The position numbers were made by a program, and so were the translations under genes. A DNA stretch of 61,023 bases, taken from positions 1-61,023 of the IMG/VR virus record IMGVR_UViG_3300042554_000484; one strand, written 5' to 3'. Below are positions 7,307-32,740 of the stretch, in pieces. The stretch's first letter is position 1. The number at the start of each line of letters is the position of its first letter. The DNA comes from a virus (Duplodnaviria; Caudoviricetes). The notes beneath the pieces were generated by a model that made no database searches, was not told the origin of the DNA, and saw only the letters and a program-made list of their open reading frames with translations.

Positions 7307-7729
7307 TCAGGTCAGGTCAACCCACAGGTAACGGAACGTAGCCGCCGCCTCGTTGATCGCAGAAGCAGTGGCGTTCACCGCGTACACCGTGACCGTGTTC
7401 GTAGCCGTGACCGCAGCCCCAGCGAACACAAGACCCGTTGTCAGCGCGGGAGGATTGACAACCACCACGTCACCGGCGGCAGCGCCCGTGACCGTGATCG
7501 TTCCCGATCCCGTCTCGCCGGCAGCGATCTCGGCGAAGTCCACCGAACCCGTGCCAGTAGCGATCTTCTTGATGACGGATCCCGAAGATCCGACAGCGAG
7601 CGTGCCCGCTGTCAGATCACCGGTCACCGTGGCGTCGTCACCGACCGTGAGGTCATCGGTAGCGACCACGTCATCGTCAGCGTGTAGCCGGCCGACAAGG
7701 GCCTCTCCCTGAGTGAGACGGTTAGACAT
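7307..7729 (-). CDS. Capsid decoration / head fibre-like protein
   Basis: Directly downstream of the major capsid gene; Thr/Ala/Val-rich beta protein. Confidence 0.55.
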   Translation of the reverse strand: MSNRLTQGEALVGRLHADDDVVATDDLTVGDDATVTGDLTAGTLAVGSSGSVIKKIATGTGSVDFAEIAAGETGSGTITVTGAAAGDVVVVNPPALTTGLVFAGAAVTATNTVTVYAVNATASAINEAAATFRYLWVDLT

Positions 7730-8706
7730 CAGGCCACCGCTGTGTTGAAGTAGACACCGAGGTCGCTGGACACGACCTTGTTGTCGAACGCAACCTCAGC
7801 CTCGACACGATCCGCCTTGAGGGCGTCCATGCGAATCTGAGAGGTGCCGACCGTCTGGCCGAGGCCACCCGACACACCAGTCCACGAGAAGATGTAGCCG
7901 GCGGACGGGGTGAGCAGGCCGGGGTTCGGGGCGACGTGGCCGAGCCACGCAACCTTGCCCACGTTGAACGAGTAAGCGCCAGTGGCACCCTCGTTGTTCG
8001 TGGCCCGGATCGACTTGGCGACGAGCACGCGGTCCACCTCGAACATGCGGGCGAGCATGTCGCTCGTCACCACAGAAGAAGAGGTGTACTTGATGCGGTC
8101 GACGATGTCGGGGTGATGACGCAACTTGCGGAACGTCTCGTACCCGAGGACGAGGGTGTTGGCCTCGAAGCCCGTGGTCGAGAGGATCTGCGCCTTGCCG
8201 GTCTCAACATTCTCAATCGGATCGGAGTTGGCGTAGTCGCTCCACTGCTTGAACTCGTCCGTGGAGGGAGCGCCGGCAACACCGGTGTAGTCCTTGCCCC
8301 AGACCGAAGTGGTCATGTAGTCGGACACGAACTGGACCTCGCGACGGAGCAGGAGACGCTGCGTCACGAACTCGGCAGCCTCACGAAGCGGGTTCAGCGG
8401 GCTGTCCGCGTTCGCCTTCGTCTGATCGCCGACATCCTTGTGGAACGCCCACACGTCAGCCGAGTACGTCGCGGTGCTCAGGTTGTAGCCCGAGCCAGCC
8501 GACTCGGTTGCGTCGGCGCGGCGCTGGGCCTCGTCGCGGAACCAGTCGTTCTTCGTGTAGACGAAATACTTGTCCGACTTCTTGTCCACCGGGACAACCG
8601 GGAAGACCTTGTCGGCGATGAAGTTCTCCGACTTCTGCATGTACGCGACCGAGATGTTGGTCAGGATCGCGTCGATGTGAACATTGTTCACGTTCGGCTG
8701 TGCCAT
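7729..8706 (-). CDS. Major capsid protein
   Basis: 325 aa after scaffold and cement genes; HIDAILTNISVAY...FIADKVFPVVPV...WSDY..SDPI pattern of lambda gpE-like capsid proteins. Confidence 0.88.
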   Translation of the reverse strand: MAQPNVNNVHIDAILTNISVAYMQKSENFIADKVFPVVPVDKKSDKYFVYTKNDWFRDEAQRRADATESAGSGYNLSTATYSADVWAFHKDVGDQTKANADSPLNPLREAAEFVTQRLLLRREVQFVSDYMTTSVWGKDYTGVAGAPSTDEFKQWSDYANSDPIENVETGKAQILSTTGFEANTLVLGYETFRKLRHHPDIVDRIKYTSSSVVTSDMLARMFEVDRVLVAKSIRATNNEGATGAYSFNVGKVAWLGHVAPNPGLLTPSAGYIFSWTGVSGGLGQTVGTSQIRMDALKADRVEAEVAFDNKVVSSDLGVYFNTAVA

Positions 8707-8735: not shown

Positions 8736-9131
8736 TCACGCAGCCCGCGAGGGCGCGGCGCAGTTGACGACGGCGGTTGCGATTTCGTTGTCGGCTCCGA
8801 CTGCGAGGATCACGGTGCCGACGACGTACTCAGTCGTGTCGGTGCCGGGGACCTTGGCATCAGCCTTGCCTGCGTTGTTGGTTCCGATGAGGGTGCCAAC
8901 GGTCAGAGCGGCAGAGGCGACGATCTTCGTGCCGCCGGCCACAACGATCTCGGCTTCCTCGCCCTGAAGGGGCGCGTTCTGAAGCACGCCGATCGGCCGG
9001 TCAGTGGCGCCGTTGCACAAGGTCACGACACCGCCCGTTCCGATCTCGACGAACTTGTACTGATGGGTGCTGAGGTCCGCCCCCGCGACGAGGGTGATCT
9101 TCAGCGAGTAGTTGTTGATCTCGTATGCCAC
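8736..9131 (-). CDS. Capsid cement/decoration protein (DUF2190-like)
   Basis: AGADLS..YKFV...PIGVLQN.P..GE.AEI...G..K pattern; sits between scaffold and capsid. Confidence 0.7.
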   Translation of the reverse strand: MAYEINNYSLKITLVAGADLSTHQYKFVEIGTGGVVTLCNGATDRPIGVLQNAPLQGEEAEIVVAGGTKIVASAALTVGTLIGTNNAGKADAKVPGTDTTEYVVGTVILAVGADNEIATAVVNCAAPSRAA

Positions 9132-9136
9132 GGCGA

Positions 9137-9949
9137 TCAGCCCTTCTTCTCGGCGAGGTACTCGGTGTAGAGAGCCGGGTCGCTGACGAACACGTCAGAG
9201 AGAGCCTGCTCGAAAGTGGCTGAGGTGCCGTCAGCGACAGCGGCCTTAGCCAGCGACTCCGCCTTGTGGAAAGCGGAGCCAGTATGAACGGGCGTTGAGC
9301 CGATCTCGCTGAAGATGTCAGCGGACTCGACCTTCGCGTTGGCCGCAAGCAGCGTGCTCTCGACCGACTTCGCCAGGGCCTCATCGACCTCGGCAAGGCG
9401 ACGCAGCGCCGGGCCGACCTGATCGGCGTCAAGACCGAGAGCCCCGTAGGTCTCGCGGGCCTTCACGACCGCGTCAGCGTCAGCACGCTCTGCACGCTCC
9501 TTGAGAAGCGTGGCCTCGGCAGCCTCGGCCTTAGCCATGGCCTCCTGCGCCTGCTTCTCCATGACCTCGAACGCCTTACGAACAGACTCAGGCGCAGCCT
9601 TCATCATGTCCTCGTCGTCCTCGGGCTCTTCCTCATCCGAATCGCCACGGGAGGCCATCTCCTTCTCCATATCGGCGATCCGCGACTCGGCAGCGGCGAG
9701 GGCCTTCAGGGCCTCGTCGAGCCGATCCTCGGTGCTCTTCTCCATGTGGCCCTCCTGGGCGTCGGTGGACGGCACCTCCTCTTCGGAGGTGTCAGGTTCC
9801 TCGGTGATCTGCTCCATCGCTGCCACAACAGCGTCAGGGTCGGCCGCCTTCATGACGAGCCACCCCTCGGCAAGGTGAGCAGGATGATCGACGCCGGATG
9901 TCTCTTCGATAGCAAGATTGACCATCTTGCGCGTACGGCGACGCTCCAC
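9137..9949 (-). CDS. Capsid scaffolding protein
   Basis: GTG start after AGGAGG; N-terminal EETSGVDHPAH, acidic Ala-rich coiled coil, ends PALYTEY. Confidence 0.75.
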   Translation of the reverse strand: MERRRTRKMVNLAIEETSGVDHPAHLAEGWLVMKAADPDAVVAAMEQITEEPDTSEEEVPSTDAQEGHMEKSTEDRLDEALKALAAAESRIADMEKEMASRGDSDEEEPEDDEDMMKAAPESVRKAFEVMEKQAQEAMAKAEAAEATLLKERAERADADAVVKARETYGALGLDADQVGPALRRLAEVDEALAKSVESTLLAANAKVESADIFSEIGSTPVHTGSAFHKAESLAKAAVADGTSATFEQALSDVFVSDPALYTEYLAEKKG

Positions 9950-10155
9950 AGATCCTCCTAAACCAGACACGGGCCGCCAACCCCTAAGTAGGGGCGACGA
10001 CCCGCAGGTCTCGATGAGGCTAGGTTAGCACGATCCCTGTCCCCCGAGAGGGTTGCGAAACGGGTTGTGCGGATGCTAAGGCAAGGCCGACAGCCCAGCC
10101 GGCGATGAAGCCGCAGCCGAGCCACGCCGCCACTGCGACGACAGCGACCCCCGTC

Positions 10156-10417: not shown

Positions 10418-11083
10418 TCACTCGGTCTCCTCCAAGTCGACGAACAGTCTCTCGGCGCGTCCCCCAATAGAGTAGCCCCTGATCTTGCCGCCCTTGACTA
10501 ACTCCCACGCCCACGGCTTCCACTTCACGCCGAGGAACACGGTGTTAGCGGGGAACGACACCGGTTCATGTGTGTCCTCACCGGTCGCGGCCTTCTTCAT
10601 CATCGGCACCTGCACCTCGTAAGGCCACGTCATCACCTCGACCCACTCCCCAGCGACCTCATCCCGGTCATGCTGAAGACGGATCCGGCGGTCGCCGCCC
10701 TTGACGTAATCCCACACGGCCTTCTGCAACTCTTGCGCGTCGGTCCACTCAGAGTGGGCGTCGAGACGGTCGGGGATGTACATGGGGCCGAGGGTGAACA
10801 TCTCCTCAGAGACGGCCTTGGACACCTCGAAGTCGCCGACACTCTTCGCCACCTCGGGAGTGAAGGCGTCAACAGCGAACAGGCGGGCCTGCTCCTCGGT
10901 GATCTCTTCGAGGCGCGGGTCACCGTCCACGATGTACAGGGCGAGACGTGGGTAGTCGACCCACTGCTTCTCGACGATGTCCCATAGGTAGGTGTCAAGG
11001 GTCTGGGCTTCGTCGTCTTGCTCCATGCGGAACAGGGCGTAGATGCCTTGCTCGTCGACCTTACCGAACAGTCTGGTAGCCAT
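10418..11083 (-). CDS. XkdF-like (S78-related) prohead serine protease with an N-terminal immunity-like domain
   Basis: C-terminal part: G..Y.PD..DAH.EW...I.LQH...W..VK.G.I.GYSIGG. First ~80 aa: ALFR...W...IVDGD...EEITEEQA. Confidence 0.78.
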   Translation of the reverse strand: MATRLFGKVDEQGIYALFRMEQDDEAQTLDTYLWDIVEKQWVDYPRLALYIVDGDPRLEEITEEQARLFAVDAFTPEVAKSVGDFEVSKAVSEEMFTLGPMYIPDRLDAHSEWTDAQELQKAVWDYVKGGDRRIRLQHDRDEVAGEWVEVMTWPYEVQVPMMKKAATGEDTHEPVSFPANTVFLGVKWKPWAWELVKGGKIRGYSIGGRAERLFVDLEETE

Positions 11084-11104
11084 AACTCTCCTTCTACCCC
11101 CAGT

Positions 11105-13717
11105 TTAGACTAGGCCGGCGTCTTGAGCCGTCTGGAACCCCTGGAACAGGGTCGTGCCGATCGACAGCACCGAACCGGACGGCACCGCAATGCTCCGTGC
11201 CATGCGGGTCATGCGGTTGTACGTCTTCCAGCGGGTCCGATTGTCGCGAGACTCACGATATGTCTCGTACTCGGCGTGGATCGGCTCCTTCGCCTTGAGG
11301 GATCCGGGCGTGTGGAACTGCAACTCGAACTTCTGCCCATTCGGGTGAACGGCAGCGACGTTGATCCCCTGGTAGGGGTCGCCTTCCTGCCAGTAGTTCT
11401 TGACTCGCATCTGGTAGCCCTTGGCTTCGAGGTCGCTGATCGTGGCGGACACGCCATCGGTGTAGCCGTCTTCCTCGAAGGTCATGGTGTAGCGCACCAC
11501 GTCGGACATCTTGTCGGCAGTGACCTCGGCGTCGCCGCCGTTCTCGACCTTCTCGTCGTCGATCTTCCGAGCGAGGGACTTCTCCGCCTTCATCCGGTAG
11601 TCGAGACCCTCCATGGTGCCGCCGTTAGCGTTCGCCGTGTCGATCATGTCTTTCGTGATCTCGGGCTCGGCCTCGGCTGCCTTGTCACGAACCCGCTTGG
11701 CCGCTGCGACCACGTTGTCGGGTCGACCGGTGGCCGAGGGGTTGTCGACCGGGTTCAACTTGTAGCCGCCATAAGACGCGCCACCCTCGGGCGCCACCGA
11801 GTCCCCTCCGCCGGCCGAGGATCCACCACCCTTACGGGGGGCATGGCTCGACTGGTCATGTGACCCGTGCTTCTCGACAGGCCAGTTGAGGGTCACCACG
11901 GCACCACCCGGCAGGGAGAACGTGGTCAGGCTGTTGGGCAGGTAGTCGTAGTACAGGGTGTGGCCGTCGAGTGACTTCGAGGTGCGGTTGCGCTTGTCAC
12001 CCGGCCACATGCCGGTGACCTCACGGTGCCGGATCGCGCAGTAGCCCTTGGCCTGCTCGCTGGTCATGTACTTCCCGACCGCAGCCACACAGGCAGTGAA
12101 GTCGCCGCCGGCGCCCCACGAAATCTTGCCCTTGCCACCGCCACGCCAGTAGTCCCGCAGCGCCTCGGGGTTGCCGCGCTTCTCCATCTCGTCCGCGAGG
12201 TAGGCGTAGGAACCGAAGTCGGACAGGTCGTCGTCGTCCATGGTGGACAGCAACTCTTCCTCGTCGACCTCGTCATCGGTCAGTGGCCCGCCCGTGAGCC
12301 ACGCCGAGCAGGATCGTGCCGCAGCGCACTTGAACTGGAACAACTCGCAGTAGCCCAGACCCGCCGCCTCGGCGACATCTTCACCCTCGTCGCTGATGTT
12401 GCCGGCGATGGCATCGACGATCTCTTCCTTCACGTTGAAGGCGGCACAGTTGCCGCAGCGGGTCGTAGACGCCTCATCCGCCGGCACGCCCCACACCTCA
12501 CCGAGACGCTCCCAGTAGTCGCCGGGCTCGTCCGGGTTCATCGGCCCATACAGGTACTCGTCGATGGCGTGCTGCCGGTTCTCAAGGTTGACGTGGATGT
12601 CAGTGATCGCCTCGGGGACGGCACGCTTCTCCACGTCACCGAGCACGGAACGCACCCATGACCGGCCGGGGTCTCCGCCCCACGCATCCCACGCCACACG
12701 CCACGGCGTCGGCTCCCCGTCGTCGAGTTGGGCGTGGTCGCCGCGCTGCTTGCCGTGCCGGGCGAAGTAGGCCCGCATCTTCACCAGCGTGTCCTGGCCG
12801 ACCGTGCCGCCCTCGGCGAGTTGCCTAGCCCGGTTGCGGCCCACTGAGGTGAACCCGTCGCCGGCCTTGCCGTCCTCAATCCACGCCACGGCTCGACGGG
12901 CAGCGGAGCGGACAGCGTCGGGCACCTTGTACGAGTCGGCCTTCTCAAGGGCCCCAATGGACTTCAGGGACGACGCCCGATGCCCCACGACCGTGTCCGT
13001 GGGCCGGAAGCCCTGAGAGGTGAGCCGGTACACGCGGATCAGCACCGCTGGATCCTCTTCCGAGGCGTTCAGGGTGAAAGTGGAGTCGGGCACGTTGACC
13101 TTGCCCTCGGTGACGATCCGCTCGATGCGGCCCCTGGCGGGTCCACCGGATGAGCCCCAGGTGACGAAGTCGTCGACTCGCCATTCCTTCGCCTTAGCGA
13201 ACCGTTCGATCTGGTCGAGACGGGCCTGCGCTTCCTCGCGAGTGTCGTAGGTGCCGAACTCCCGATCCGTGTCCTCGGCCATGACGACGTACTTGCCGTC
13301 CCGCTCGACGATGCGCTTGAGCATGGCTTTCGGCTTCTCGGCGCCCATGATGGAGTCGACGTGGACCGTGTTCACGTTGGGTGACGCCTTGAGGACGTAG
13401 CCGTCGACTGTGAGGAGCACCTGCACGACGCCGCCGGCTTCGAGGGCCTTGGCGAGGGGCTCGGACAGGTCGCCGGGGAAGTCGATGTCGTCGACCGACG
13501 CCACCTCGGCCTCATCGACCACGATCACTGACCGGGACCATTGGTCATCCTCGTGTCCGTGGTCGAGGCCCCGCTTCAGCATCTCCTGCGACACCAGATG
13601 GTGGGCCTGCACCGCAGCCGGGTCATCCACGGCAGAGGCGTCTAGGCGGGTGTGCAGTGCGACTAGGTCGTCGGTGGGGAGAGCGGCCAGCCTGACGGCG
13701 GGGTCGGTCACTGTCAT
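11105..13717 (-). CDS. Multidomain head-associated polyprotein with C-terminal RelA/SpoT-like (Apk/Tas1-type) nucleotidyltransferase toxin domain
   Basis: C-terminal motifs RMKAEKSLARKI, DVVRYT, KNYW, YQGIN, FELQFHT, H..YE..R; internal AW.AWGGD.G, Cys-rich and Tudor/SH3-like modules. Confidence 0.8.
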   Translation of the reverse strand: MTVTDPAVRLAALPTDDLVALHTRLDASAVDDPAAVQAHHLVSQEMLKRGLDHGHEDDQWSRSVIVVDEAEVASVDDIDFPGDLSEPLAKALEAGGVVQVLLTVDGYVLKASPNVNTVHVDSIMGAEKPKAMLKRIVERDGKYVVMAEDTDREFGTYDTREEAQARLDQIERFAKAKEWRVDDFVTWGSSGGPARGRIERIVTEGKVNVPDSTFTLNASEEDPAVLIRVYRLTSQGFRPTDTVVGHRASSLKSIGALEKADSYKVPDAVRSAARRAVAWIEDGKAGDGFTSVGRNRARQLAEGGTVGQDTLVKMRAYFARHGKQRGDHAQLDDGEPTPWRVAWDAWGGDPGRSWVRSVLGDVEKRAVPEAITDIHVNLENRQHAIDEYLYGPMNPDEPGDYWERLGEVWGVPADEASTTRCGNCAAFNVKEEIVDAIAGNISDEGEDVAEAAGLGYCELFQFKCAAARSCSAWLTGGPLTDDEVDEEELLSTMDDDDLSDFGSYAYLADEMEKRGNPEALRDYWRGGGKGKISWGAGGDFTACVAAVGKYMTSEQAKGYCAIRHREVTGMWPGDKRNRTSKSLDGHTLYYDYLPNSLTTFSLPGGAVVTLNWPVEKHGSHDQSSHAPRKGGGSSAGGGDSVAPEGGASYGGYKLNPVDNPSATGRPDNVVAAAKRVRDKAAEAEPEITKDMIDTANANGGTMEGLDYRMKAEKSLARKIDDEKVENGGDAEVTADKMSDVVRYTMTFEEDGYTDGVSATISDLEAKGYQMRVKNYWQEGDPYQGINVAAVHPNGQKFELQFHTPGSLKAKEPIHAEYETYRESRDNRTRWKTYNRMTRMARSIAVPSGSVLSIGTTLFQGFQTAQDAGLV

Positions 13718-13744: not shown

Positions 13745-13957
13745 TTACCGCTCGACAGGCTCCTGGCCGGGGCTTGGCAGTAGCGCATATGCCATAACGT
13801 CGATGAGGATCTCGCCGTAGATGTCAGTGGCGTCTTCGAGTTTCTGCCCGGCCTTCACTTCGCGCTCCATCACGTCCCAGAACTCGGGGGGTGCCTGATC
13901 GTAGGCGACGGCCTTGAGGGCGGCGATGACTTCGAGGTCTTTCTCCTGCTCGGTCAC
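13745..13957 (-). CDS. Small acidic protein (candidate immunity)
   Basis: 70 aa, Asp/Glu-rich, coupled to the upstream ORF by GTGA overlap. Confidence 0.5.
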   Translation of the reverse strand: MTEQEKDLEVIAALKAVAYDQAPPEFWDVMEREVKAGQKLEDATDIYGEILIDVMAYALLPSPGQEPVER

Positions 13958-14151
13958 TTGACTCTCCGGTAGTACGGGGACTGGAAGACGGCCTCTTGCT
14001 CCTCCGGCGTCATCTTGTCGAACTCGTCGGCGAAGGCGTACATCTCGGGTAGGGCTTCGCGCATGGCCTGCTCATACTCGGTGTCGCTGGCGGTCTCGGG
14101 CAGGGCGTCATAGACCTTCTCCGAGGCTGCGAGGATCTTATCTACGTTCAT
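13954..14151 (-). CDS. Small acidic protein (candidate immunity)
   Basis: ATG at 14151 after GGAGG; own extended -10-like element just upstream. Confidence 0.55.
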   Translation of the reverse strand: MNVDKILAASEKVYDALPETASDTEYEQAMREALPEMYAFADEFDKMTPEEQEAVFQSPYYRRVK

Positions 14152-14195
14152 GGTCTTCCCTCCTTCCATACTCTAACCCCCGTTATGATACCACG

Positions 14196-17100
14196 TTAGT
14201 CGAACAGGGTTTGCTGCCCAGGAATCTGCGGCTCAGACGGAGCCCCAGCAGCCGCCTCAGTCTCCGTAGTCGACCGCCTCGGCCCGGAGGGGCTCAACTC
14301 CTTGATCCCATACCAATCCGTGCCCAGCAACGCCTCCTTGCCCGGCCAGGTAGCGGCACCATCGACGAAGCCCCACGACGCCACCTCGCGGGGGCTCGGA
14401 TAGTCAGGATCCGATGTCGGTAGATCGAGCCGCGCCCGCAGGCTCCTACCCGACCGCTCAACCGAGCCTGGAAGCGCACCGCTATCGAGCACCTCATCGA
14501 ACTGGTACTTGACTGAACTGGTCGCCCCACCGGTACGCGCCCAGTCGAAGCCCTGCCTCGCCCACGCGAACCCACCCACGTCGAGGGCGGCGTGGACATG
14601 CACGTCGGTGATGCCGTGTGAGATGTAGTAGTCCTCTGCCCGCTTATTGAAGACCTTGGCGAACCCGGTGCCCTGGTACTCCTCGTCGATTCGGAGGAGT
14701 TCGTGGCTTACAGCCACTCTGCCGTTGTCGTCAACGAAGAAGCGTCGCTGGAACTCGCCGGCCCAGTCTCCGTTCTCGGTGTAGATCGTGCCGGTGACAT
14801 CGACGTGGTTCTCGCCCCAGTAACGCTCGACAGTCACATCCCCGACCTCGGCTTGTAGCCGGACGACTCGGCCATCGGGTGTCATGCCCTCGTGGCCTAT
14901 CCCGTAGACCTCGTTGAAAGCGTCGGTGTCTAACCCCTCTAGATCGGATTGCCGCATCTCGTCACCGTAGTCAGCGACGTAGAGGTCCAAGTCGCTTTCC
15001 ATGCGTGCTTCGAGGCGCTCGTCGAACTCTTGCTGGTAGGTGTTGCCCATGAGGGGCTCTTCATAGTCTGGGTCGTCACTGCGATCTACCCAGCCCTCGT
15101 CTGCCATCTCCTCGGCGACTGCATCGCGTGCGCCTTCCTCAATAACATCGGCATATTCGTCGCGGACTCGCTCACGCAACGCATCATCATCCATGCCGCC
15201 AGCGGCACCGACCTCCAACACGTCACGGCCCGGCCCCACGTTAGCCATCGCGTCGATGTCTTTCTGCCGAGCGCCCCAACCCGACGACGCCCCACCGCCA
15301 CCACGACCATGCGACTTCTGATCATGCGCCCCGCCGAGATGCTTCCGCAGAGACTTATCCATCCACGACGGCCTGCCGTACTTCTCGTAGTAAGACTCCC
15401 GCAGGCTACGAGCCTCATCGTCAGTGAAGCCCCAACGCTTCTTCCGCTTGATCCCCACCCGTTCCGCAACCCGAGTGATACGCCGCTCCACACGTCCCAT
15501 CGCCGAACCGAGGCGCCGCGCCAAAGGCGATTCCGGCAAGTTGAGATCCGAATAGTCACCTGTCACAAGGGCCTGAGCGATAGCCTCACGCTGATCTTCG
15601 TATTCTTCCTGCCACGTCTTACCGCCGCCGCGCCTGGAACTAGGTTCATCCGTGTCGAAGTTACTGGTGAACGTGCCACCACCTGACGGCGTGTACCGGC
15701 CCGGCACGCCACGCAACTCGTCAGCCGCAGACGACCCGCCACCACGACGGCCATGTGACGACTGATCGTGTGAGCCGTGCTTTAGGACTGGTCGGAGGCC
15801 GGGCTCGAAGGCGACGACGATTCCTCGCCCGCGAACTTCGCCCACAGAGTCTTTGCGTACTCGTCGATCTCCGCGTCCGTCATCTTCGACAGGTCCGGCA
15901 GTTTCACTACCTGCAACGGCCTTTCCGACTGCTCCTGTGCCACCGGTATCTATCTCCTCGAAGTTGGCTACGTCCCAAATGCTGATCTGGTCCCGCTTAC
16001 GTCCCGCGTCGATAGCGGTGTCACGGTCCATGATGTTCTCGGACACGTCGAGATACACCTTGCCGTCCGCCTGATTGTGCCACAACCCCAGATAGGAGCC
16101 CTCGGACAACTCGCGGTTGGACTTCATGAAAGAGCCCAACGCCTCGGGGCCGCGCTCCGGGTCGTAGAACTCGTCGGCGTCCATGATGGCGCCCTTGCTG
16201 CCGCCCATGGCGACCATGAAGCCCTTAGTGGGTTCGGATCCGTCGACCATGTTGACGGAGAGGCCGCCGTTAGCGCGGACCCTTTCGACGATGGATTGTG
16301 CGACGGTGCCGTCGAGTTTCAGGCTTGATCCTCCGCCGCCTCGGCGACCGTGTGAGGACTGGTCGTGGCTGCCGTGCTTCAGTACGGGGCGCAGCCCAGG
16401 CTCGAACGCCACGAGCACCGACTTCGCTATCGGCTTCACCGCAGTAGGCGGGACAGCGGGATCGAAAGTGTCGAGGATGATGACACGCTCGAACTCGTCA
16501 TCGCCGGCTGCCTTTGTCACGCCCGTTCCCCAGTTGTATCTCCCAGCGAAGTATGTCGACGCCGGGTTCGTGGTGGATCCACCAGTCAGGGACCATTCTG
16601 CCCAAGACTCGGCCAAATGCTCGTAATCATTGAATCTACCGTAGGTACTAAGCGCGTCCATGCCGCCGTTGTCCCGTAGCGCATAGTAGTCGTCGCCGAT
16701 CTGACGGTTGCTGCGCTTGTCGGTGACGTGGCCGTACTCGTGCGTGACAACATACTTCACTTGGCTTACCGTCTGCGCGGAAGGCATCGAATAGCCTTCT
16801 TCGCGGTTGATCAACTTGGCGCCTTGCGCGTATTCCGGGCGCATGTTTATCTGCTTCTCGCCTCGTAGTACGAACGCTTTAGTTGAGTCCTGCACGATGT
16901 CAGCGTTATCGCGGAAGGGCGCGTTACTGAACACTACCGTCAAGCCGCTGACGGGAACCTGCGACTGGCAAGTGTTGAGCGCCTCCATGGTGTCGCGCAT
17001 GGCTGCCGCGTCGGGCTCGCCACCGCCGAGCAACTCGACTCGCACTCGTGAGCCGTTAGGTCCGGTGTATTCGGTTGTCCTATCAGTGAAGTCGTCGGCT

Positions 17101-17279
17101 AGGTCTCCGGCCCGCTGCGGATCGTTGGGGTACTGCCCACTGAACCGGGCTAGGTAGTCGGCGCGGATGTCATCGCGGCTACGCTGCGCCCAGCCCTCGG
17201 GAAGATCAGATGTCCCGCCCTTGTGCGGGTTATGCGACGCCTGATTATGAGACCCATGCTTGACAACCGTGTCCATCAC
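14196..17279 (-). CDS. 1027-aa tagged polyprotein: HExxH metallopeptidase, unknown/possible SAM-lyase-like, unknown, and GNAT domains
   Basis: Four KH(G/LGG)xHxQxSH motifs; HEYGH...STYG...EHLAE; YLGLW...VYLDVS; EEYQGTGFA...GGFAWARQGF. Confidence 0.75.
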   Translation of the reverse strand: MMDTVVKHGSHNQASHNPHKGGTSDLPEGWAQRSRDDIRADYLARFSGQYPNDPQRAGDLADDFTDRTTEYTGPNGSRVRVELLGGGEPDAAAMRDTMEALNTCQSQVPVSGLTVVFSNAPFRDNADIVQDSTKAFVLRGEKQINMRPEYAQGAKLINREEGYSMPSAQTVSQVKYVVTHEYGHVTDKRSNRQIGDDYYALRDNGGMDALSTYGRFNDYEHLAESWAEWSLTGGSTTNPASTYFAGRYNWGTGVTKAAGDDEFERVIILDTFDPAVPPTAVKPIAKSVLVAFEPGLRPVLKHGSHDQSSHGRRGGGGSSLKLDGTVAQSIVERVRANGGLSVNMVDGSEPTKGFMVAMGGSKGAIMDADEFYDPERGPEALGSFMKSNRELSEGSYLGLWHNQADGKVYLDVSENIMDRDTAIDAGRKRDQISIWDVANFEEIDTGGTGAVGKAVAGSETAGPVEDDGRGDRRVRKDSVGEVRGRGIVVAFEPGLRPVLKHGSHDQSSHGRRGGGSSAADELRGVPGRYTPSGGGTFTSNFDTDEPSSRRGGGKTWQEEYEDQREAIAQALVTGDYSDLNLPESPLARRLGSAMGRVERRITRVAERVGIKRKKRWGFTDDEARSLRESYYEKYGRPSWMDKSLRKHLGGAHDQKSHGRGGGGASSGWGARQKDIDAMANVGPGRDVLEVGAAGGMDDDALRERVRDEYADVIEEGARDAVAEEMADEGWVDRSDDPDYEEPLMGNTYQQEFDERLEARMESDLDLYVADYGDEMRQSDLEGLDTDAFNEVYGIGHEGMTPDGRVVRLQAEVGDVTVERYWGENHVDVTGTIYTENGDWAGEFQRRFFVDDNGRVAVSHELLRIDEEYQGTGFAKVFNKRAEDYYISHGITDVHVHAALDVGGFAWARQGFDWARTGGATSSVKYQFDEVLDSGALPGSVERSGRSLRARLDLPTSDPDYPSPREVASWGFVDGAATWPGKEALLGTDWYGIKELSPSGPRRSTTETEAAAGAPSEPQIPGQQTLFD

Positions 17280-18373
17280 ACAGCCTCATCCATCAGACGC
17301 AACTCCGCAAGCCACCTATCCATGTCCTGCGACGGCAAACCAGTAAGCCCGCGAGACGGCGGAATCAACACAGCCGTACACCGACAATGCGGATGCGCCG
17401 GCGGCATCGTATGACCAGTCGGGAACGCAGCGTTCCACTGCACTCGCTTCCCACTCAACGACGAACACACGTCACACGGCTTCCCACGCCGAGACGCCGA
17501 AGGAGCCACAAGCCACTCCTTCTGCGACGACCCATCCAACAGGCCCGTCTTGTACGACGCATCCCACGAAGTCTGTCGCGCCATGTTCTGCGCCAACTGC
17601 AACTCCGTGCGGGCAATCATCTCCGCCCTACGCCGAATCAGCCTGTCCCGGTACGTCTTGGTCATCACGTCGGCCTTGGCCCGCGCCGCCTCCGGTGTCA
17701 TGCCAGCCCTCACGAGTTGCCGGATCGTCGTCGAATCGTAGTTGTCGACAGCCCTAGCCCAGCGGGTATGCAGGCCCACGGTCTGCCGCAACATGCGGGC
17801 CGTGTCATACGGGGAACGGCCCTGCGCGAGAGAGTCACGAATGACGTACCGAATCGCCGTCCGGTTCGCCCTGTCAATGTCCGTCACCAGCATGGCAGCG
17901 CGAGTGTCGGCGTAATACACGGCCCTCGGATCCACGAAGTCGACGATCACGTTACGGATCGGGTTGATCGCGAACTCGTCGACACCGCCACCATCCGGCA
18001 GGGCGAGGCTCGACGGGACAATGATCCCCGAAGGCAACCGGACACCCGGATCTTGCAGGATCGGCACACCCGGCCGGGCATCATTCCGCACCAGTCGAAC
18101 GAACTCTTCCTGAGCCCGACGAAGGTACGCCTTCTTGAGTTTCTCGGCGAGGCGTGCTTCAAGATAAGCGACCGTTATGTCGTTGATGAACTCTTCCACG
18201 GCACTCGGGTCCAGCGAAGAGATCGCGTTGACGAGCCACTCGACATCGGCCACCAGCCGCGTCTCCCGCAACATGCGGGCGATCTGGTCGGCGATTGCCT
18301 GCTCCGCCGGCGTGAAGGGGTTGCTCGGGCCGTAGCCGCCGGGGCGCCGCTTGCCGCCACGGATGATCGCCAC
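17276..18373 (-). CDS. MuF-like (Mu gpF / SPP1 gp7) minor head protein, with no C-terminal toxin
   Basis: RA..IARTE, KEW, C..C, PPAHPHCRC; directly after portal. Confidence 0.85.
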   Translation of the reverse strand: MAIIRGGKRRPGGYGPSNPFTPAEQAIADQIARMLRETRLVADVEWLVNAISSLDPSAVEEFINDITVAYLEARLAEKLKKAYLRRAQEEFVRLVRNDARPGVPILQDPGVRLPSGIIVPSSLALPDGGGVDEFAINPIRNVIVDFVDPRAVYYADTRAAMLVTDIDRANRTAIRYVIRDSLAQGRSPYDTARMLRQTVGLHTRWARAVDNYDSTTIRQLVRAGMTPEAARAKADVMTKTYRDRLIRRRAEMIARTELQLAQNMARQTSWDASYKTGLLDGSSQKEWLVAPSASRRGKPCDVCSSLSGKRVQWNAAFPTGHTMPPAHPHCRCTAVLIPPSRGLTGLPSQDMDRWLAELRLMDEAV

Positions 18374-18376
18374 GGG

Positions 18377-19861
18377 TTACGCCTCTTCGTCGTCGGGCTC
18401 AGGCTCCTCGTCAGCCTTCTTACCCCCACCGAACGGTGCCGCACCACCTGGGAACGCCGGCGCGTCCGGCACAATCCCGGTGCGCTCGGCCAACTGGCGT
18501 TGCGCGTTCGGCAGAGCCAGGAGAGCCTTCTGGTCCTCTTCGCTCATGTCGGATCCGCCGGCGTCCTCGGTGTTGTGGGCAGCCGGGGGCAGGCCCGCAA
18601 GGTCGCGCAGGTGATCTTCGAGGGTGGGGTCGGGCACGAGGATGCCAGCGGCGGTCATCTTGGAGACGAAGTCGCTGATCTCGGTGAGGTCGACATGTGC
18701 CACCTCGGAGTACACGAGGTTGGGGCAGCGGGTCGTGTCCATGCCGTTGAGGCGCATGAGGCGCGGGATGGCGTGGGCGTTGATCGTGTCAGCGATCGTC
18801 TTGCACAGGCTATCCACAGCCATCGTCCACAGGTCCATCTTCGTCGCGCCGAGGGCAAACGAACCAACCCGGTCATGGCCGAGGAGGATGAAGTCGCTGA
18901 GGACCGACATGGCGATGCGCTGGTCATACCGCTGGATAATCTTGTCCGTGTCGAACTGACGTGACCCGCCCGACGACAGCAACGTCAACTCGAAGAGTTT
19001 ATGGCCCGCCTCGTCGTAGATGACGGGGAAGATGACGCCCTCGTTCTCGTTCCGCTTGATCGAGGTGACGATCTCCTTGACAGCGTTCAACACACCGATC
19101 TGCTCCGGGGTTGCTGTCGAGGACAGGTACTCCGGGGGCACATGGGCGACGGGAAGGCCGGCGAGGTCACGCTCGATACCGATCGCTTCGATCTCTTCGA
19201 TGCGGCGCTTGAAGTACCAGGGGCGGTAGGCGTTGCGGAGCAGTGAACGGCCCTCGGGGTTATTCTTCTGCGTCGTCGTGCGGAACAGCAGCGACTTGTC
19301 GATCGGGATGGTGTGCATCCCGCCACCGGACGGGTCGTACTGTGTGTACGCCTGGATTCCGCCGTCCTCGTCGAACTCCCACTTCATCCACGTCTCTTGG
19401 GCGCGGATCGGCCACTTGCGCCAGCCAATCTTGCCGTCATTGAACTTGGACCGCTTCTTCGGATCCTTCTGATCGGGGCCGAGGCGACGCTTGTACACGA
19501 TCTCGTGCCAGGACCAGCCGAACACAACGAAAGACAGGATCGAGGCGAGCGCGGAGTCCCACGAGTCGCTCATGTCATTGAGGCACTCTTCAACGAAACG
19601 GGCCGCCTCAACATCGTCCTCGGCGGGCTCGTCGGTGGCGCCGATCTCATTGAACGGGTCGATGCGCCATTCGAGGCGGGTGATGATCTTCTCGACGGCG
19701 AACAGGAATGAGCCGATGACCGGATCGTTGTCCGACATCTCCCGGTAGGTGCGGGTGCCGAGGCGGCCCCGCAACTGTGTGAGGAACTCCTCGTACACAT
19801 AGCCCGAGGAGCGGCGTAGACCGGTTGAGCCTATCTCGGTGAGATCGGGCCTCGGTGCCAT
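18377..19861 (-). CDS. Portal protein (DUF935 / Mu gp29-like)
   Basis: 494 aa; NPEGRSLLRNAY.PW.FK..I...EAIGIERDLAG.P; GSFALG. Confidence 0.88.
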   Translation of the reverse strand: MAPRPDLTEIGSTGLRRSSGYVYEEFLTQLRGRLGTRTYREMSDNDPVIGSFLFAVEKIITRLEWRIDPFNEIGATDEPAEDDVEAARFVEECLNDMSDSWDSALASILSFVVFGWSWHEIVYKRRLGPDQKDPKKRSKFNDGKIGWRKWPIRAQETWMKWEFDEDGGIQAYTQYDPSGGGMHTIPIDKSLLFRTTTQKNNPEGRSLLRNAYRPWYFKRRIEEIEAIGIERDLAGLPVAHVPPEYLSSTATPEQIGVLNAVKEIVTSIKRNENEGVIFPVIYDEAGHKLFELTLLSSGGSRQFDTDKIIQRYDQRIAMSVLSDFILLGHDRVGSFALGATKMDLWTMAVDSLCKTIADTINAHAIPRLMRLNGMDTTRCPNLVYSEVAHVDLTEISDFVSKMTAAGILVPDPTLEDHLRDLAGLPPAAHNTEDAGGSDMSEEDQKALLALPNAQRQLAERTGIVPDAPAFPGGAAPFGGGKKADEEPEPDDEEA

Positions 19862-22943: not shown

Positions 22944-23411
22944 TCAGGGGAGGAAGCGGCTGATGTCGATTCCGGCTTCCGATTCGAGGATCCTGAGTCC
23001 CTGCTCATACTTCCCGGTCAGTCGTGCTCGGATTGCAGGGTCGGGGATCCCGTCTATGCGCTGGTAGTTGTCGATCATGTCGGATGTCTTCACCCATGCG
23101 GCGATCGGGTTGCGGGCGAGTCGACTGACGTGGTCACCGTAGGGCTCATGCTTGTCGGTGCGCGTGAGCAGCCCCACGGCTTCGATCACGTCGGGGTGTG
23201 CGCCGAGGGCTCGCAGGTCGTCGAGGGTGTGCGGCGTGTCCTCGACAACGTCGTGGAGGAGGCCGGTGATGACGTAGGTGTCACCGAACTCGTGCAGTCG
23301 AGCGCCCACTCGCAGCGGGTGCAGGATGTAGGGGGATCCTTGCTTGTCGACCTGCCCGTCGTGGGCGCGGGTGGCGAACTCGATGGCGCCCTCGACGGTA
23401 ATCAGCATCAC
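22944..23411 (-). CDS. HD-domain small alarmone hydrolase (Mesh1/Aph1-like)
   Basis: A..AH.GQ.DK.G.PYI.HPLRV, LLHDVVED, VK.SD..DN. Confidence 0.88.
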   Translation of the reverse strand: MMLITVEGAIEFATRAHDGQVDKQGSPYILHPLRVGARLHEFGDTYVITGLLHDVVEDTPHTLDDLRALGAHPDVIEAVGLLTRTDKHEPYGDHVSRLARNPIAAWVKTSDMIDNYQRIDGIPDPAIRARLTGKYEQGLRILESEAGIDISRFLP

Positions 23412-31171: not shown

Positions 31172-31852
31172 GAGAGAAGGGAGCACCACATGACCAAGAA
31201 GTGCCGAGACTGCTTCAACCGAGTGGGCGCCGACGGCTGGCGCTGCGACAACTGCGCCGCCCGCTGGAAGAAGTACACCGACGACTACATAGCAGCCCGA
31301 GCCGCATCCGGCGGCAAAGGATGGGAGCACGCCAACTGCGACCACGCCTACGGGTACTGCGCCGCAACCCCGAGCAACGCCTACGAAGGGATCACGAAAT
31401 GAGCAACATGGACATCACCCCCGAGCAGTACCTCGAACTCGGCATGACCCGCAAGGGCCTGATCCTCGACCTCGTCAACGGCATCGACAGCGACCTGCTG
31501 ATGCTCGCCAAGGACGAGTCGGCCCAGAACGCCGGAGCCACGACGGTCGCCGACCGAGCCACACGCCGGCTGATGAACCTCGTCGCCCTCATCGAGCCCG
31601 ACCTCATCAACATCAACCCCGAGGAGAACGCATGACCGAACACGCGCCCTCCATCACACACATGAGCCTCAAGGCACGGCAACGCGCCGCACGGCAGTGG
31701 GCCGCATGGCGCAACGCCGGCGAACCCGAGGTCATCACCTGCAAGCGGGCCTACGAACTCACCGGCATCGACTGGTACGGTCAGCGCGACTCGCGAGTGC
31801 CCGTCCGGCTCACCGCCGTCGCAATCAACTACGTCAAGAAGGGAGGACGCCT

Positions 31853-32740
31853 ATGACCACGACCATTGTCCATAGCCCGTTCTACTCACAATGGGTGTTC
31901 GACCCCGAGCACCCGACACAAGGCCGCCGCTTCGACAAGGGCTTCGACGCGGTCACCATGGCCCTCGAAGAGGAGGGCCGCCGCTATCAGGTCATCGAGC
32001 CTGAGCCGGTCGAGCGTGACGACCTGTTGCGTGTCCACACTGGCGGTTACGTCTCGAAGGTGGAAGCCGGTTTCAGTGACGAGTGGTCCGGTGAGCGCCG
32101 CGACCTCGGATCCCTGGCCGGACTGTTCGTCGGCGGCACACTCACGGCCCTCGACAGCCTCGAAGGTAGCGGCGGGCTCGCCGTCAATCTGCCTGGTGCG
32201 AAGCATCACGCCATGGCCGACTATTCGAGCGGTTTCTGTGTGTTCGCTGACCTAGCGATCGCAGCGGACATCGCCACCGAGCGGGGACACCGTGTCGCGA
32301 TCCTCGACATCGACGCGCACCACGGCGACGGCACCGAGGCGCTCACCCGCAGCAACCCGAACGTGCTCACGTTCAGCGTGCACGAGGGCGGCATCTTCCC
32401 CGGCACCGGGCTCACGGACGACAAGCAGCACAACGTGTACAACGACGCCCTGCCCCACTCATCCGGTGGGTCAAGCCTGCTGAACGCCGTCGACCGGTTC
32501 ATCGAAGTTGGTGACCCGTTCGATCCGACCGTGCTGTTCATCGCCGGTGGCGCTGACGGGCATTGGCGTGACCCGCTGTCGAGCCTGCTGTACTCCCTCG
32601 AAGATTACGAGGAGGCAATGTGGCGGGTTCGCACGTCATTCACGTCGCTGCCGATCCTGTTCGGTGGCGCCGGCGGATATCAGCCTGACGGTGGCACGCC
32701 CCTGTCGTGGGCGGCCATGATCCGGGGACTAGCCCGCTAG
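31853..32740 (+). CDS. Zn-dependent histone deacetylase family (AcuC/HDAC-like) protein
   Basis: HP, GAKHHA, GFCVFAD, DIDAHHGDG, FPGTG, GADGH..DPL and GG.GGY motifs; ATG at 31853 after GGGAGG. Confidence 0.9.
   Translation: MTTTIVHSPFYSQWVFDPEHPTQGRRFDKGFDAVTMALEEEGRRYQVIEPEPVERDDLLRVHTGGYVSKVEAGFSDEWSGERRDLGSLAGLFVGGTLTALDSLEGSGGLAVNLPGAKHHAMADYSSGFCVFADLAIAADIATERGHRVAILDIDAHHGDGTEALTRSNPNVLTFSVHEGGIFPGTGLTDDKQHNVYNDALPHSSGGSSLLNAVDRFIEVGDPFDPTVLFIAGGADGHWRDPLSSLLYSLEDYEEAMWRVRTSFTSLPILFGGAGGYQPDGGTPLSWAAMIRGLAR

Follow-up and report, generated by a model that had tools for sequence, protein, structure and literature searches.

The window analysed here, by which we mean the whole stretch of DNA at its full length of 61,023 bp, is the complete IMG/VR virus record IMGVR_UViG_3300042554_000484. 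Within its head-gene module it encodes a protein of 870 amino acids (aa) whose C-terminal part resembles the alarmone synthetase toxins of the Apk2 type. We read this protein as a polyvalent head-module cargo that bears an Apk2-type toxin domain and is accompanied by a co-travelling inhibitor, a hydrolase and a MuF protein in trans, and we give this composite reading a probability of roughly two in three (0.68). The module is transcribed in the order portal, MuF, 1027-aa protein, two small open reading frames (ORFs), 870-aa protein, XkdF-type protein, scaffold and major capsid protein (MCP), and comprises the following genes.

18377..19861, minus strand: portal protein (Portal_Mu, E 1.6e-36)
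17276..18373, minus strand: stand-alone MuF protein of 365 aa, directly after the portal gene (PF04233, E 2e-10)
14196..17279, minus strand: polyvalent protein of 1027 aa, the gene after MuF, with four HDQ delimiters
13954..14169 and 13745..13957, minus strand: two small ORFs of 71 and 70 aa, between the 1027-aa and 870-aa genes
11105..13717, minus strand: multidomain head-module protein of 870 aa, consisting of an N-terminal carrier, an HDQ delimiter and a C-terminal alarmone synthetase
10418..11083, minus strand: XkdF-type protein of 221 aa (PF14550)
9137..9970 and 8736..9131: scaffold-like proteins (PHROGs match)
7729..8706, minus strand: MCP (phrog_1005, E 9e-99)

The stop codon of the MuF gene overlaps the start codon of the 1027-aa gene (TGATG). 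The 870-aa gene sits between portal and MuF on one side and protease, scaffold and MCP on the other, a late or head context in keeping with the first-pass annotation of this DNA. The domain of principal interest lies at the end of that gene.

11105..11800, minus strand: alarmone synthetase domain of the RelA/SpoT homologue (RSH SYNTH) type, aa 640-870 (8VX3 match, profile, AlphaFold2 model and Foldseek)

The first-pass annotation had called an Apk/Tas1-like alarmone synthetase toxin domain at 11105-11715, which corresponds to aa 668-870 plus the stop codon of the ORF. The motifs it quoted (RMKAEKSLARKI, MSDVVRYT, KNYW, YQGIN, FELQFHT and IHAEYETYR) all fall within the last ~200 aa, and the call is supported by sequence, profile and fold matches as well as by conserved catalytic residues. 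Used as a single sequence with phmmer against the PDB sequences, aa 640-870 match SaEAS (8VX3) at E 3.7e-18. A profile of 34 family members matches 8VX3 at E 3.9e-36 and Tas1/Apk1 (6OX6) at E 1.5e-6, and at E<=1 it matches none of the RelQ, RelP, Rel or CapRel chains and none of the chains of tRNA pyrophosphokinases of the toxSAS type. The alignment to the solved structures places the synthetase domain at aa ~663-848 (window ~11174-11731). The Apk2 proteins of S. pneumoniae and M. haemolytica phages match the ORF at E 2e-25 and 6e-25 (phmmer), and a tblastn search of GenBank phages retrieves the C-termini of "minor head / head morphogenesis" proteins from Streptococcus, Pasteurella and Mannheimia phages at 31-37% identity; two of the loci so matched (L004 and L005) are MuF fusions of the characterised Apk2 type.

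The AlphaFold2 model of the domain, computed from the 34-sequence alignment, has a mean predicted local distance difference test score (pLDDT) of 96.3 and a predicted template modelling score (pTM) of 0.90, and displays the SYNTH fold with a central antiparallel sheet flanked by helices. A Foldseek search with this model recovered the RelA/SpoT fold that the motifs had led one to expect, all significant matches being RSH synthetases: SaEAS (8VX3) ranks first (TM 0.70-0.85) and is followed by Tas1 (E 3e-5), RelP, RelQ, Rel and CapRel (rank 24, E 6.6e-4). Residues K710, K718, D739, R742, K773, N786, E798, Q800, H802 and Y817 are conserved in the domain. The active-site residues of SaEAS named in passages of Ahmad et al. 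(PMC12691689), D121, R124, K154, N169, E182 and Q184, correspond to D739, R742, K773, N786, E798 and Q800; across the 34 sequences the Asp, Arg, Asn, Glu and Gln are invariant and the Lys is nearly so. From these sequence correspondences, the domain is very probably an active alarmone synthetase of the Apk/EAS clade.

Since the domain belongs to the same fold superfamily as FaRel2, CapRel and PhRel2, and CapRel appears in the Foldseek list, it might instead pyrophosphorylate tRNA rather than free nucleotides. This is very improbable, as the profile finds no tRNA pyrophosphokinase of the toxSAS families at E<=1, SaEAS, Tas1 and Apk2 are much closer, and the genome encodes a hydrolase of the Aph1 type.

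Relatives of the domain are numerous. An exhaustive search returned 3604 representative clusters at E<=1e-3, 2595 at E<=1e-10 and 194 at E<=1e-30, and the proteins of the 3604 clusters range from 178 to 3815 aa. Some giant relatives of up to 2774 aa (P0056, P0064, P0092 and P0144) have 3-6 separate synthetase-domain matches per protein. At the very end of the 870-aa protein (11105..11170, minus strand), a conserved peptide of the form F-[QE]-T-A-x-[DEQ]-A-G-L is common to several otherwise divergent relatives, and could be a docking or cleavage signal.

The remainder of the 870-aa protein, which matches phrog_2859 at E 1.6e-89, is assembled from segments that recur in the head genes of other phages.

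13034..13171, minus strand: Hva1_TUDOR domain, aa 183-228 (PF11160, E 1.2e-6)
12257..12655, minus strand: Cys-rich domain of the carrier, aa ~355-487, very common among head-region genes of phages (tblastn against phages)
11981..12193, minus strand: phrog_6439 domain, aa 509-579, common to hypothetical proteins of Gordonia and Microbacterium phages

Besides Hva1_TUDOR, the only other Pfam match in the 870-aa protein is a weak one to DUF2188. Residues 134-403 are similar to the N-terminal part of a fusion protein of 816 aa, annotated "major capsid protein", whose gene follows that of the portal in Roseobacter phage CRP-811. The Cys-rich domain is elsewhere annotated as "high potential iron-sulfur protein", MCP or "capsid maturation protease" (for example in the context of DSL-LC01), and accounts for the whole match to the 870-aa protein, at 37-43% identity, in 76 of the 79 retained IMG/VR loci (L009-L084); it is probably a metal-binding domain of the head module. 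Judged by these matches, the carrier is a mosaic. With Hva1_TUDOR, Cys-rich, phrog_6439 and synthetase domains joined in one polypeptide encoded between MuF and the protease, the 870-aa protein has the composition of a polyvalent protein.

The domain had also been described as not fused to MuF, and this is correct. Pfam detects no Phage_Mu_F domain (PF04233) in the 870-aa protein, and a MuF profile built from the MuF protein of the window and 12 relatives finds no similarity in aa 1-639 (hhalign probability 0.15%), so that MuF is present in trans. The same value rules out the carrier as a divergent MuF. No PAAR domain was detected by Pfam either, and the context is a phage head module rather than a type VI secretion system (T6SS). 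The proposal of a new carrier architecture stands in part. Megablast against GenBank phages gave no match, and none of 166 GenBank phage records found by tblastn covers >=80% of the 870-aa protein, so that the whole architecture was found in no GenBank phage; metagenomic proteins of 754-872 aa are 79-89% identical in the domain, and three IMG/VR loci are 81-95% identical to the 870-aa protein. Carriers other than MuF are nevertheless common, and RelA/SpoT domains in polyvalent phage proteins have been known since 2017. When the 81 synthetase loci were dereplicated at 90% identity to 52 clusters, 40 of these metagenomic clusters had carriers without MuF in cis; MuF was found in cis in 12 clusters and in trans in 16, and was not seen in 24.

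The junction between carrier and synthetase is marked by a short motif.

11822..11872, minus strand: HDQ delimiter and Gly-rich linker, KHGSHDQSSHAPRKGGG, aa 616-632, at the 5' junction of the swapped cassette

The "KHGSHDQSSH tag" of the first-pass annotation is present at aa 616-625, 20-40 residues before the synthetase domain, but instead of being a single tag it recurs as a delimiter of modules and marks a recombination junction. When the window was scanned in six frames for H[DN]Q..H, exactly five sites emerged, one in the 870-aa protein and four in the 1027-aa protein (17232-17249, 16350-16367, 15753-15770 and 15309-15326). One of the latter lies at the extreme N-terminus of the 1027-aa protein, which begins MDTVVKHGSHNQ. 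Among 185 relatives, the strict motif is found in 57, with 82 occurrences against 0.3 in shuffled sequence and with 2-4 copies in 21 proteins; these counts are lower bounds because the strict pattern misses variants. In 55 of the 57 measured cases the motif lies 145-185 aa upstream of ELQxHT and abuts the domain. In the 81 viral loci it also occurs in 44 other ORFs, often near their N-termini, and in two MuF ORFs, most of these being large same-strand proteins of the head region; one MuF protein of 1697 aa holds five copies. Of 76 control phage loci, 3 contain the motif, and it is absent from Arthrobacter phage LiSara. No published description of the motif was found in the literature text that was searched, which did not extend to subscription journals; one unrelated plant paper matched the motif strings.

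The 1027-aa protein consists of four modules and has no match in Pfam or among PDB sequences. By eye, module 1 contains an HEYGH (zincin-like) motif and the last module a GNAT-like YQGTGFAK; the last module matches phrog_27103 and phrog_25452, and module 2 is flanked by two exact 28-aa repeats, VVAFEPGLRPVLKHGSHDQSSHGRRGGG. The two small acidic ORFs (13745..14169, minus strand) stand where an immunity gene for the last module would, and the second of them is 70% identical in the sister phage L008 despite conserved flanking genes.

A comparison of the window with this sister phage, a 59-kb contig, reveals exchange at the delimiters. The structural proteins are nearly identical (portal 99.4%, MuF 98.6%, scaffold 100% and MCP 99.7%), whereas identity falls to 74% in the 1027-aa protein, 81% in the 870-aa protein and 78% in the XkdF-type protein. 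The loss is confined to modules. In a per-40-aa profile, identity in the 870-aa protein runs at 82-100% as far as aa 640 and drops to 17-52% beyond it; the XkdF-type protein is 30-52% identical over aa 1-80 and 100% from aa 81; and in the 1027-aa protein modules 1 and 3 diverge and modules 2 and 4 are conserved. In the DNA itself, blastn delimits three divergent tracts (16428-17170, 15404-15735 and 10907-11822), each beginning 18-62 nt after a copy of the motif. The first two stop 61 and 78 nt before the next copy and the third at codon 59 of the XkdF gene, the boundaries being approximate because they are the ends of blastn alignments.

10907..11822: divergent tract of 916 bp, covering the synthetase domain and the first 59 codons of the downstream gene, with flanks 93-96% identical to L008 (blastn)

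The synthetase domain and the first ~80 codons of the XkdF gene have thus been swapped together. On the pattern of these sequences, the delimiter is best described as the module boundary and upstream recombination junction of exchangeable cassettes. A maximum-likelihood (ML) tree of 55 synthetase domains, rooted at the midpoint and built without outgroups, places the two sister phages in separate supported groups, the window with L006 (100/99) and L008 with L138, L119 and L126 (100/99), and the two characterised Apk2 domains fall outside the group of the window. Carrier labels require at least 14 changes on this tree, and supported branches force MuF in cis into at least four places. Because the tree is midpoint-rooted and leaves out Tas1, SaEAS and the toxSAS families, it speaks only to the shuffling of carriers among the phage relatives.

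The part of the downstream gene that was swapped with the synthetase encodes a separate domain.

10844..11083, minus strand: candidate immunity domain of IapK-like type, formed by aa 1-80 of the 221-aa ORF, which has a GAAGGAG Shine-Dalgarno sequence and an ATG of its own
10418..10843, minus strand: XkdF-type (Peptidase_S78_2) putative prohead protease domain behind the IapK-like domain (PF14550, E 6.6e-11, aa 86-212)

A jackhmmer search of six-frame ORFs found homologues of aa 1-80 in 47 of the 81 synthetase loci, all but two of them encoded on the same strand, with starts -4 to 111 nt behind the synthetase ORF. Some are stand-alone ORFs of 73-113 aa (stop to stop) and the others N-terminal fusions to XkdF, and the stand-alone forms occur immediately behind synthetase genes without an XkdF neighbour, among them genes with MuF-in-cis carriers. 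The domain adjoins the synthetase gene in 33 of the 52 clusters (32 directly downstream on the same strand, one abutting on the opposite strand), several of the negative loci ending at a contig edge. This adjacency holds for 31 of 42 clusters with a C-terminal synthetase and for 2 of 10 with an internal one. The fusion of inhibitor and prohead protease is seen in nine of the 52 clusters, all of which carry the HDQ delimiter.

The family has no match to a Pfam model or a PDB sequence. Its similarity to IapK emerges from profile methods alone, since direct searches with IapK (phmmer against the window, jackhmmer against the 81 loci) found nothing: hhalign gives a probability of 41% (E 2.8e-4) against S. 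pneumoniae IapK and 59% (E 9.3e-5) against a two-sequence IapK alignment. In 79 control loci, which comprise 9752 ORFs over about 1.0 Mb, the hidden Markov model (HMM) of the family has no match at E<1e-3, and its two best sub-threshold matches there are the two IapK ORFs (E 0.43 and 0.55), a ranking with chance odds of about 2e-8.

The complex of synthetase and candidate inhibitor was modelled in one job with alignments built in this analysis (A1 and A3). The median ipSAE of the model is 0.89 (runs 0.89, 0.85 and 0.89), compared with 0.00 for the best control; this mark is reached by 116 of 157 solved complexes and by 2 of 215 mismatched pairs. The partner has a pLDDT of at least 86, and at least 80% of the contacts are common to the runs. 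The modelled interface, at fragment residues 132-149, 159 and 174-197, includes K134, Y143, G145, N147, E159, H175 and Y178 (fragment numbering) and covers the acceptor and catalytic cleft, and passages of PMC12226406 report that IapK and Tis1 inhibit at the catalytic cleft. An inhibitor role for the IapK-like domain appears likely, although aa 1-80 might also be a mere variable extension of the protease, covered together with the toxin by one recombination tract and unrelated to immunity. The single phage pair in which the swap is seen, the weak likeness to IapK and the other N-terminal fusions of XkdF found elsewhere would suit such an extension. It is quite improbable, however, given that the same domain stands alone after synthetase genes without XkdF, MuF-in-cis carriers included, that it is absent from the 79 control loci, and that it is modelled on the catalytic cleft with a score set well apart from the controls.

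Other passengers precede XkdF domains in other phages. In Arthrobacter phage LiSara (L163, 7590-8711; gp18) the XkdF-type domain is the C-terminal part of a passenger fusion, and further XkdF domains lie behind phrog_14859 ("RNA ligase") and phrog_1530 ("methyltransferase", "DNA methyltransferase"). This suggests that XkdF proteases often carry N-terminal passengers and that the RNA ligase and methyltransferase annotations were transferred from these.

A further candidate partner is encoded outside the cassette.

22944..23411, minus strand: Aph1-like HD_4 hydrolase of 155 aa, candidate (p)ppApp hydrolase (HD_4, E 1.3e-7; phrog_990, E 9e-37)

Its best PDB match is the "(p)ppApp hydrolase" Aph1 (7SMG, E 2.7e-19), the hydrolase domains of Rel/SpoT following at ~1e-12, and the Aph1 proteins of the two Apk2 loci match it at E 2.6e-18 and 1.9e-14. 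In the alignment, GQVDK of the phage protein stands opposite GQIDK of Aph1 and GQFRK of a Rel enzyme; D24 of Aph1 is, with R119, one of the two specificity determinants reported in passages of PMC10083569. The hydrolase gene lies ~11 kb from the synthetase domain, so that the genes do not form an adjacent three-gene cluster, and its product is 86% conserved in L008. Passages of PMC12226406 describe hydrolase immunity as interchangeable and binding immunity as partner-specific. A binder that is swapped together with the toxin and a hydrolase that is unlinked and conserved fit this published rule. The hydrolase as a general partner of the synthetase is ruled out by its occurrence in 3 of 16 larger contigs.

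The hydrolase bears on the product of the synthetase. A domain that makes (p)ppGpp, or both guanosine and adenosine alarmones, would force a stringent-like shutdown of the cell. According to passages of PMC12691689, both kinds of alarmone are made by SaEAS, the closest solved structure, and (p)ppGpp alone by VpEAS and AaEAS, which belong to the same broad family; SaEAS moreover shares the RYT / G.N / FH signatures, and conversion of the signature motifs in Apk2 left its specificity unswitched (passages of PMC12226406). We consider this rather unlikely all the same, because the phage hydrolase is best matched by the (p)ppApp-specific Aph1 and has the Asp at the position of D24, the phage-borne relatives of the Apk2 type make only (p)ppApp (PMC12226406, in part), and the family profile matches Tas1 and no (p)ppGpp-forming small alarmone synthetase at E<=1. 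By sequence comparison, (p)ppApp is probably the main product, possibly with (p)ppGpp as well.

Several observations weigh against the composite reading given at the outset. Pfam finds no RelA_SpoT match in the 870-aa protein, even when C-terminal fragments are searched at E<=10; being blind to the domain, it could not have prompted the motif-based call, and routine annotation would miss the domain. The RYT / GxN / FH signatures are found in the promiscuous SaEAS too, and exclusive (p)ppApp synthesis is not established because of that promiscuity and of the (p)ppGpp-only members of the clade. The likeness to IapK is by itself below significance (HMM E 0.43 and 0.55; hhalign below 60%), and the co-swap of toxin and inhibitor is seen in one phage pair only. 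Pairwise identities of synthetases and inhibitors correlate across the loci (Mantel r 0.75, reached by 0 of 2000 permutations), which is not independent evidence because shared ancestry alone could produce the correlation. The complex model supports binding at the level of model confidence only, and its score may reflect likeness alone because the Tas1-Tis1 complex (6OX6) has been solved. An Aph1-like gene was found in 3 of the 16 larger contigs of relatives (2 of the 4 that are >=90% complete) and within 10 kb of the synthetase in 4 of 81 loci. A role of the delimiter in cleavage or targeting is conjecture.

This uncultivated phage was assigned to Actinobacteria in the first-pass annotation, and the genome bears this out. 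Two WhiB genes, a G+C content of ~62% and an MCP with 58-60% identity to those of Laroyevirus and other Arthrobacter phages of ~60 kb all point towards an actinobacterial siphovirus. Integrase and repressor families were matched by none of the 101 ORFs scanned with Pfam, nor by any of those, most of the 101, that were also scanned with PHROGs, which suggests a lytic lifestyle and is not proof of it. The polymorphic toxins linked to MuF are associated with temperate phages. An unusual phage cargo, a 347-aa protein of the histone deacetylase family (31697..32740, plus strand; PF00850, E 3e-49), adjoins the large terminase gene on the opposite strand.

In the composite reading, the 870-aa protein would be a late cargo protein of the head module, of the polyvalent kind, whose C-terminal ~230 aa would use ATP to pyrophosphorylate a purine nucleotide at its 3'-OH, most likely yielding (p)ppApp and possibly (p)ppGpp as well. 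The synthetase domain would represent one cassette of a system resembling polymorphic toxins, and the KH-G-HDQ--H-G/Gly-rich delimiter would mark the start of each exchangeable module and serve as the upstream recombination junction. The toxin domain would travel with its cognate IapK-like inhibitor, encoded directly downstream and here fused to the N-terminus of XkdF. The inhibitor, predicted to cover the acceptor and catalytic cleft, would silence the enzyme in the producing cell, the separately encoded Aph1-like hydrolase would protect at the level of the product, and MuF would be supplied in trans.

Packaging of the protein in the virion, followed by its injection, has about an even chance of being right. 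The protein may also stay unpackaged and act late in the producing cell, on nucleotide pools or in the exclusion of competitors, its position among the head genes being accidental; inhibitor and hydrolase could equally serve as timing controls in the same cell, and the hydrolase gene lies upstream on the same strand. We regard this as doubtful, because the gene stands between MuF and the prohead protease, as in Apk2, head-morphogenesis proteins of other phages contain segments of the carrier, nine clusters, as mentioned above, have the inhibitor as a fusion to the prohead protease, and the relatives include MuF-in-cis fusions and the 1697-aa MuF protein with its five delimiters.

A more speculative extension, which we offer as a tentative model, holds that the delimiter has a dual purpose in head-packaged effectors of actinophages, as a DNA crossover site and as a tag for capsid targeting or cleavage, and that the fusion of inhibitor and protease couples disarming to assembly. 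Cassettes would be exchanged at the delimiter between otherwise identical phages, and the tag function would explain the many proteins that start with the motif. The toxin would be kept inhibited until maturation removes the protease-inhibitor fusion; virions would then carry an armed synthetase and inject it along with the DNA, and an early-expressed Aph1-like hydrolase would clear its product.

Until now, phage (p)ppApp synthetases have been portrayed as MuF fusions that belong to temperate phages and lie in an adjacent three-gene cluster of toxin and immunity. The relatives described here have mostly non-MuF carriers, and the present locus belongs to an apparently non-lysogenic actinophage whose prohead protease bears the candidate inhibitor as a fusion and whose hydrolase gene is unlinked. 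A swappable cassette layout with candidate inhibitor and hydrolase has not been described before. The delimiter and the cassette swap, set among structural genes that are 98.6-100% identical, provide a testable model of how packaged effectors diversify, and the window and L008 offer pairs of natural alleles on which cross-immunity could be examined. Passages of PMC10083569 ask what role MuF-linked toxins play for a phage. Should a cultured relative be found, the benefit to the phage could be addressed in a simpler lytic system.

Polymorphic toxins possess pre-toxin demarcation motifs, such as VENN in CdiA and DPxGL in Rhs proteins. Like these, the HDQ delimiter is a short conserved motif that directly precedes a variable toxin at the C-terminus, and toxin and immunity are exchanged together. 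It differs in its sequence, in its several copies per protein and in its occurrence at protein N-termini.

The Apk2 toxins, which are MuF fusions from prophages of S. pneumoniae, M. haemolytica, P. multocida and B. caccae, contain a homologous toxin domain (E 2e-25, 31-37% identity) with the same RYT / GxN / aromatic-H signatures (passages of PMC12226406). In both cases the toxin gene belongs to the head module and comes after the portal gene, a small inhibitor, in the window a candidate one, is encoded directly downstream, and the genome encodes an Aph1-type hydrolase. By contrast, MuF is a separate gene in the window and the carrier is a multidomain protein of 640 aa; the HDQ delimiter is absent from the two Apk2 proteins that were checked; the candidate inhibitor is fused to the XkdF protease, and the hydrolase lies ~11 kb away instead of adjacent. 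No lysogeny genes were matched in the Pfam and PHROGs scans, and the domain falls in a different clade of the ML tree.

SaEAS, an exported enzyme of Streptomyces albidoflavus (8VX3), is the closest solved structure by both sequence and fold, and its active-site residues match. Passages of PMC12691689 describe it as a Sec-exported stand-alone enzyme without an immunity gene, whereas the domain in the window forms the C-terminal end of a phage head-module protein and has a candidate inhibitor. The carriers named in those passages of Ahmad et al. (2025) are Sec, WXG/LXG, XopAD, MuF, DUF4157 and Rhs/PAAR, and relatives of the present architecture may be among the 1,369 EAS sequences listed with that paper. 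Tas1/Apk1, the PAAR-linked T6SS toxin (6OX6), and its inhibitor Tis1 represent the same synthetase clade, and the candidate inhibitor is likewise modelled over the cleft; the present system differs in having no PAAR and no T6SS context, and its sequence is much farther from Tas1 than from SaEAS or Apk2.

The polyvalent proteins of Iyer et al. (2017) provide the framework for the carrier. The passages available from PMC5512222 record RelA/SpoT domains, MuF fusions and processing by zincin-like peptidases, with acquisition of RelA/SpoT in (pro)phages from the Spirochaetes and the epsilon-proteobacteria rather than in actinophages; in those passages no HDQ motif (0 occurrences of "hdq"), Hva1-TUDOR or XkdF was found. 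The HEYGH motif of the 1027-aa neighbour recalls the zincin-like peptidases of these polyvalent systems (PMC5512222, in part). As in the window, the polyvalent proteins described there are large multidomain proteins encoded beside packaging and head genes and contain a mixture of effector domains.

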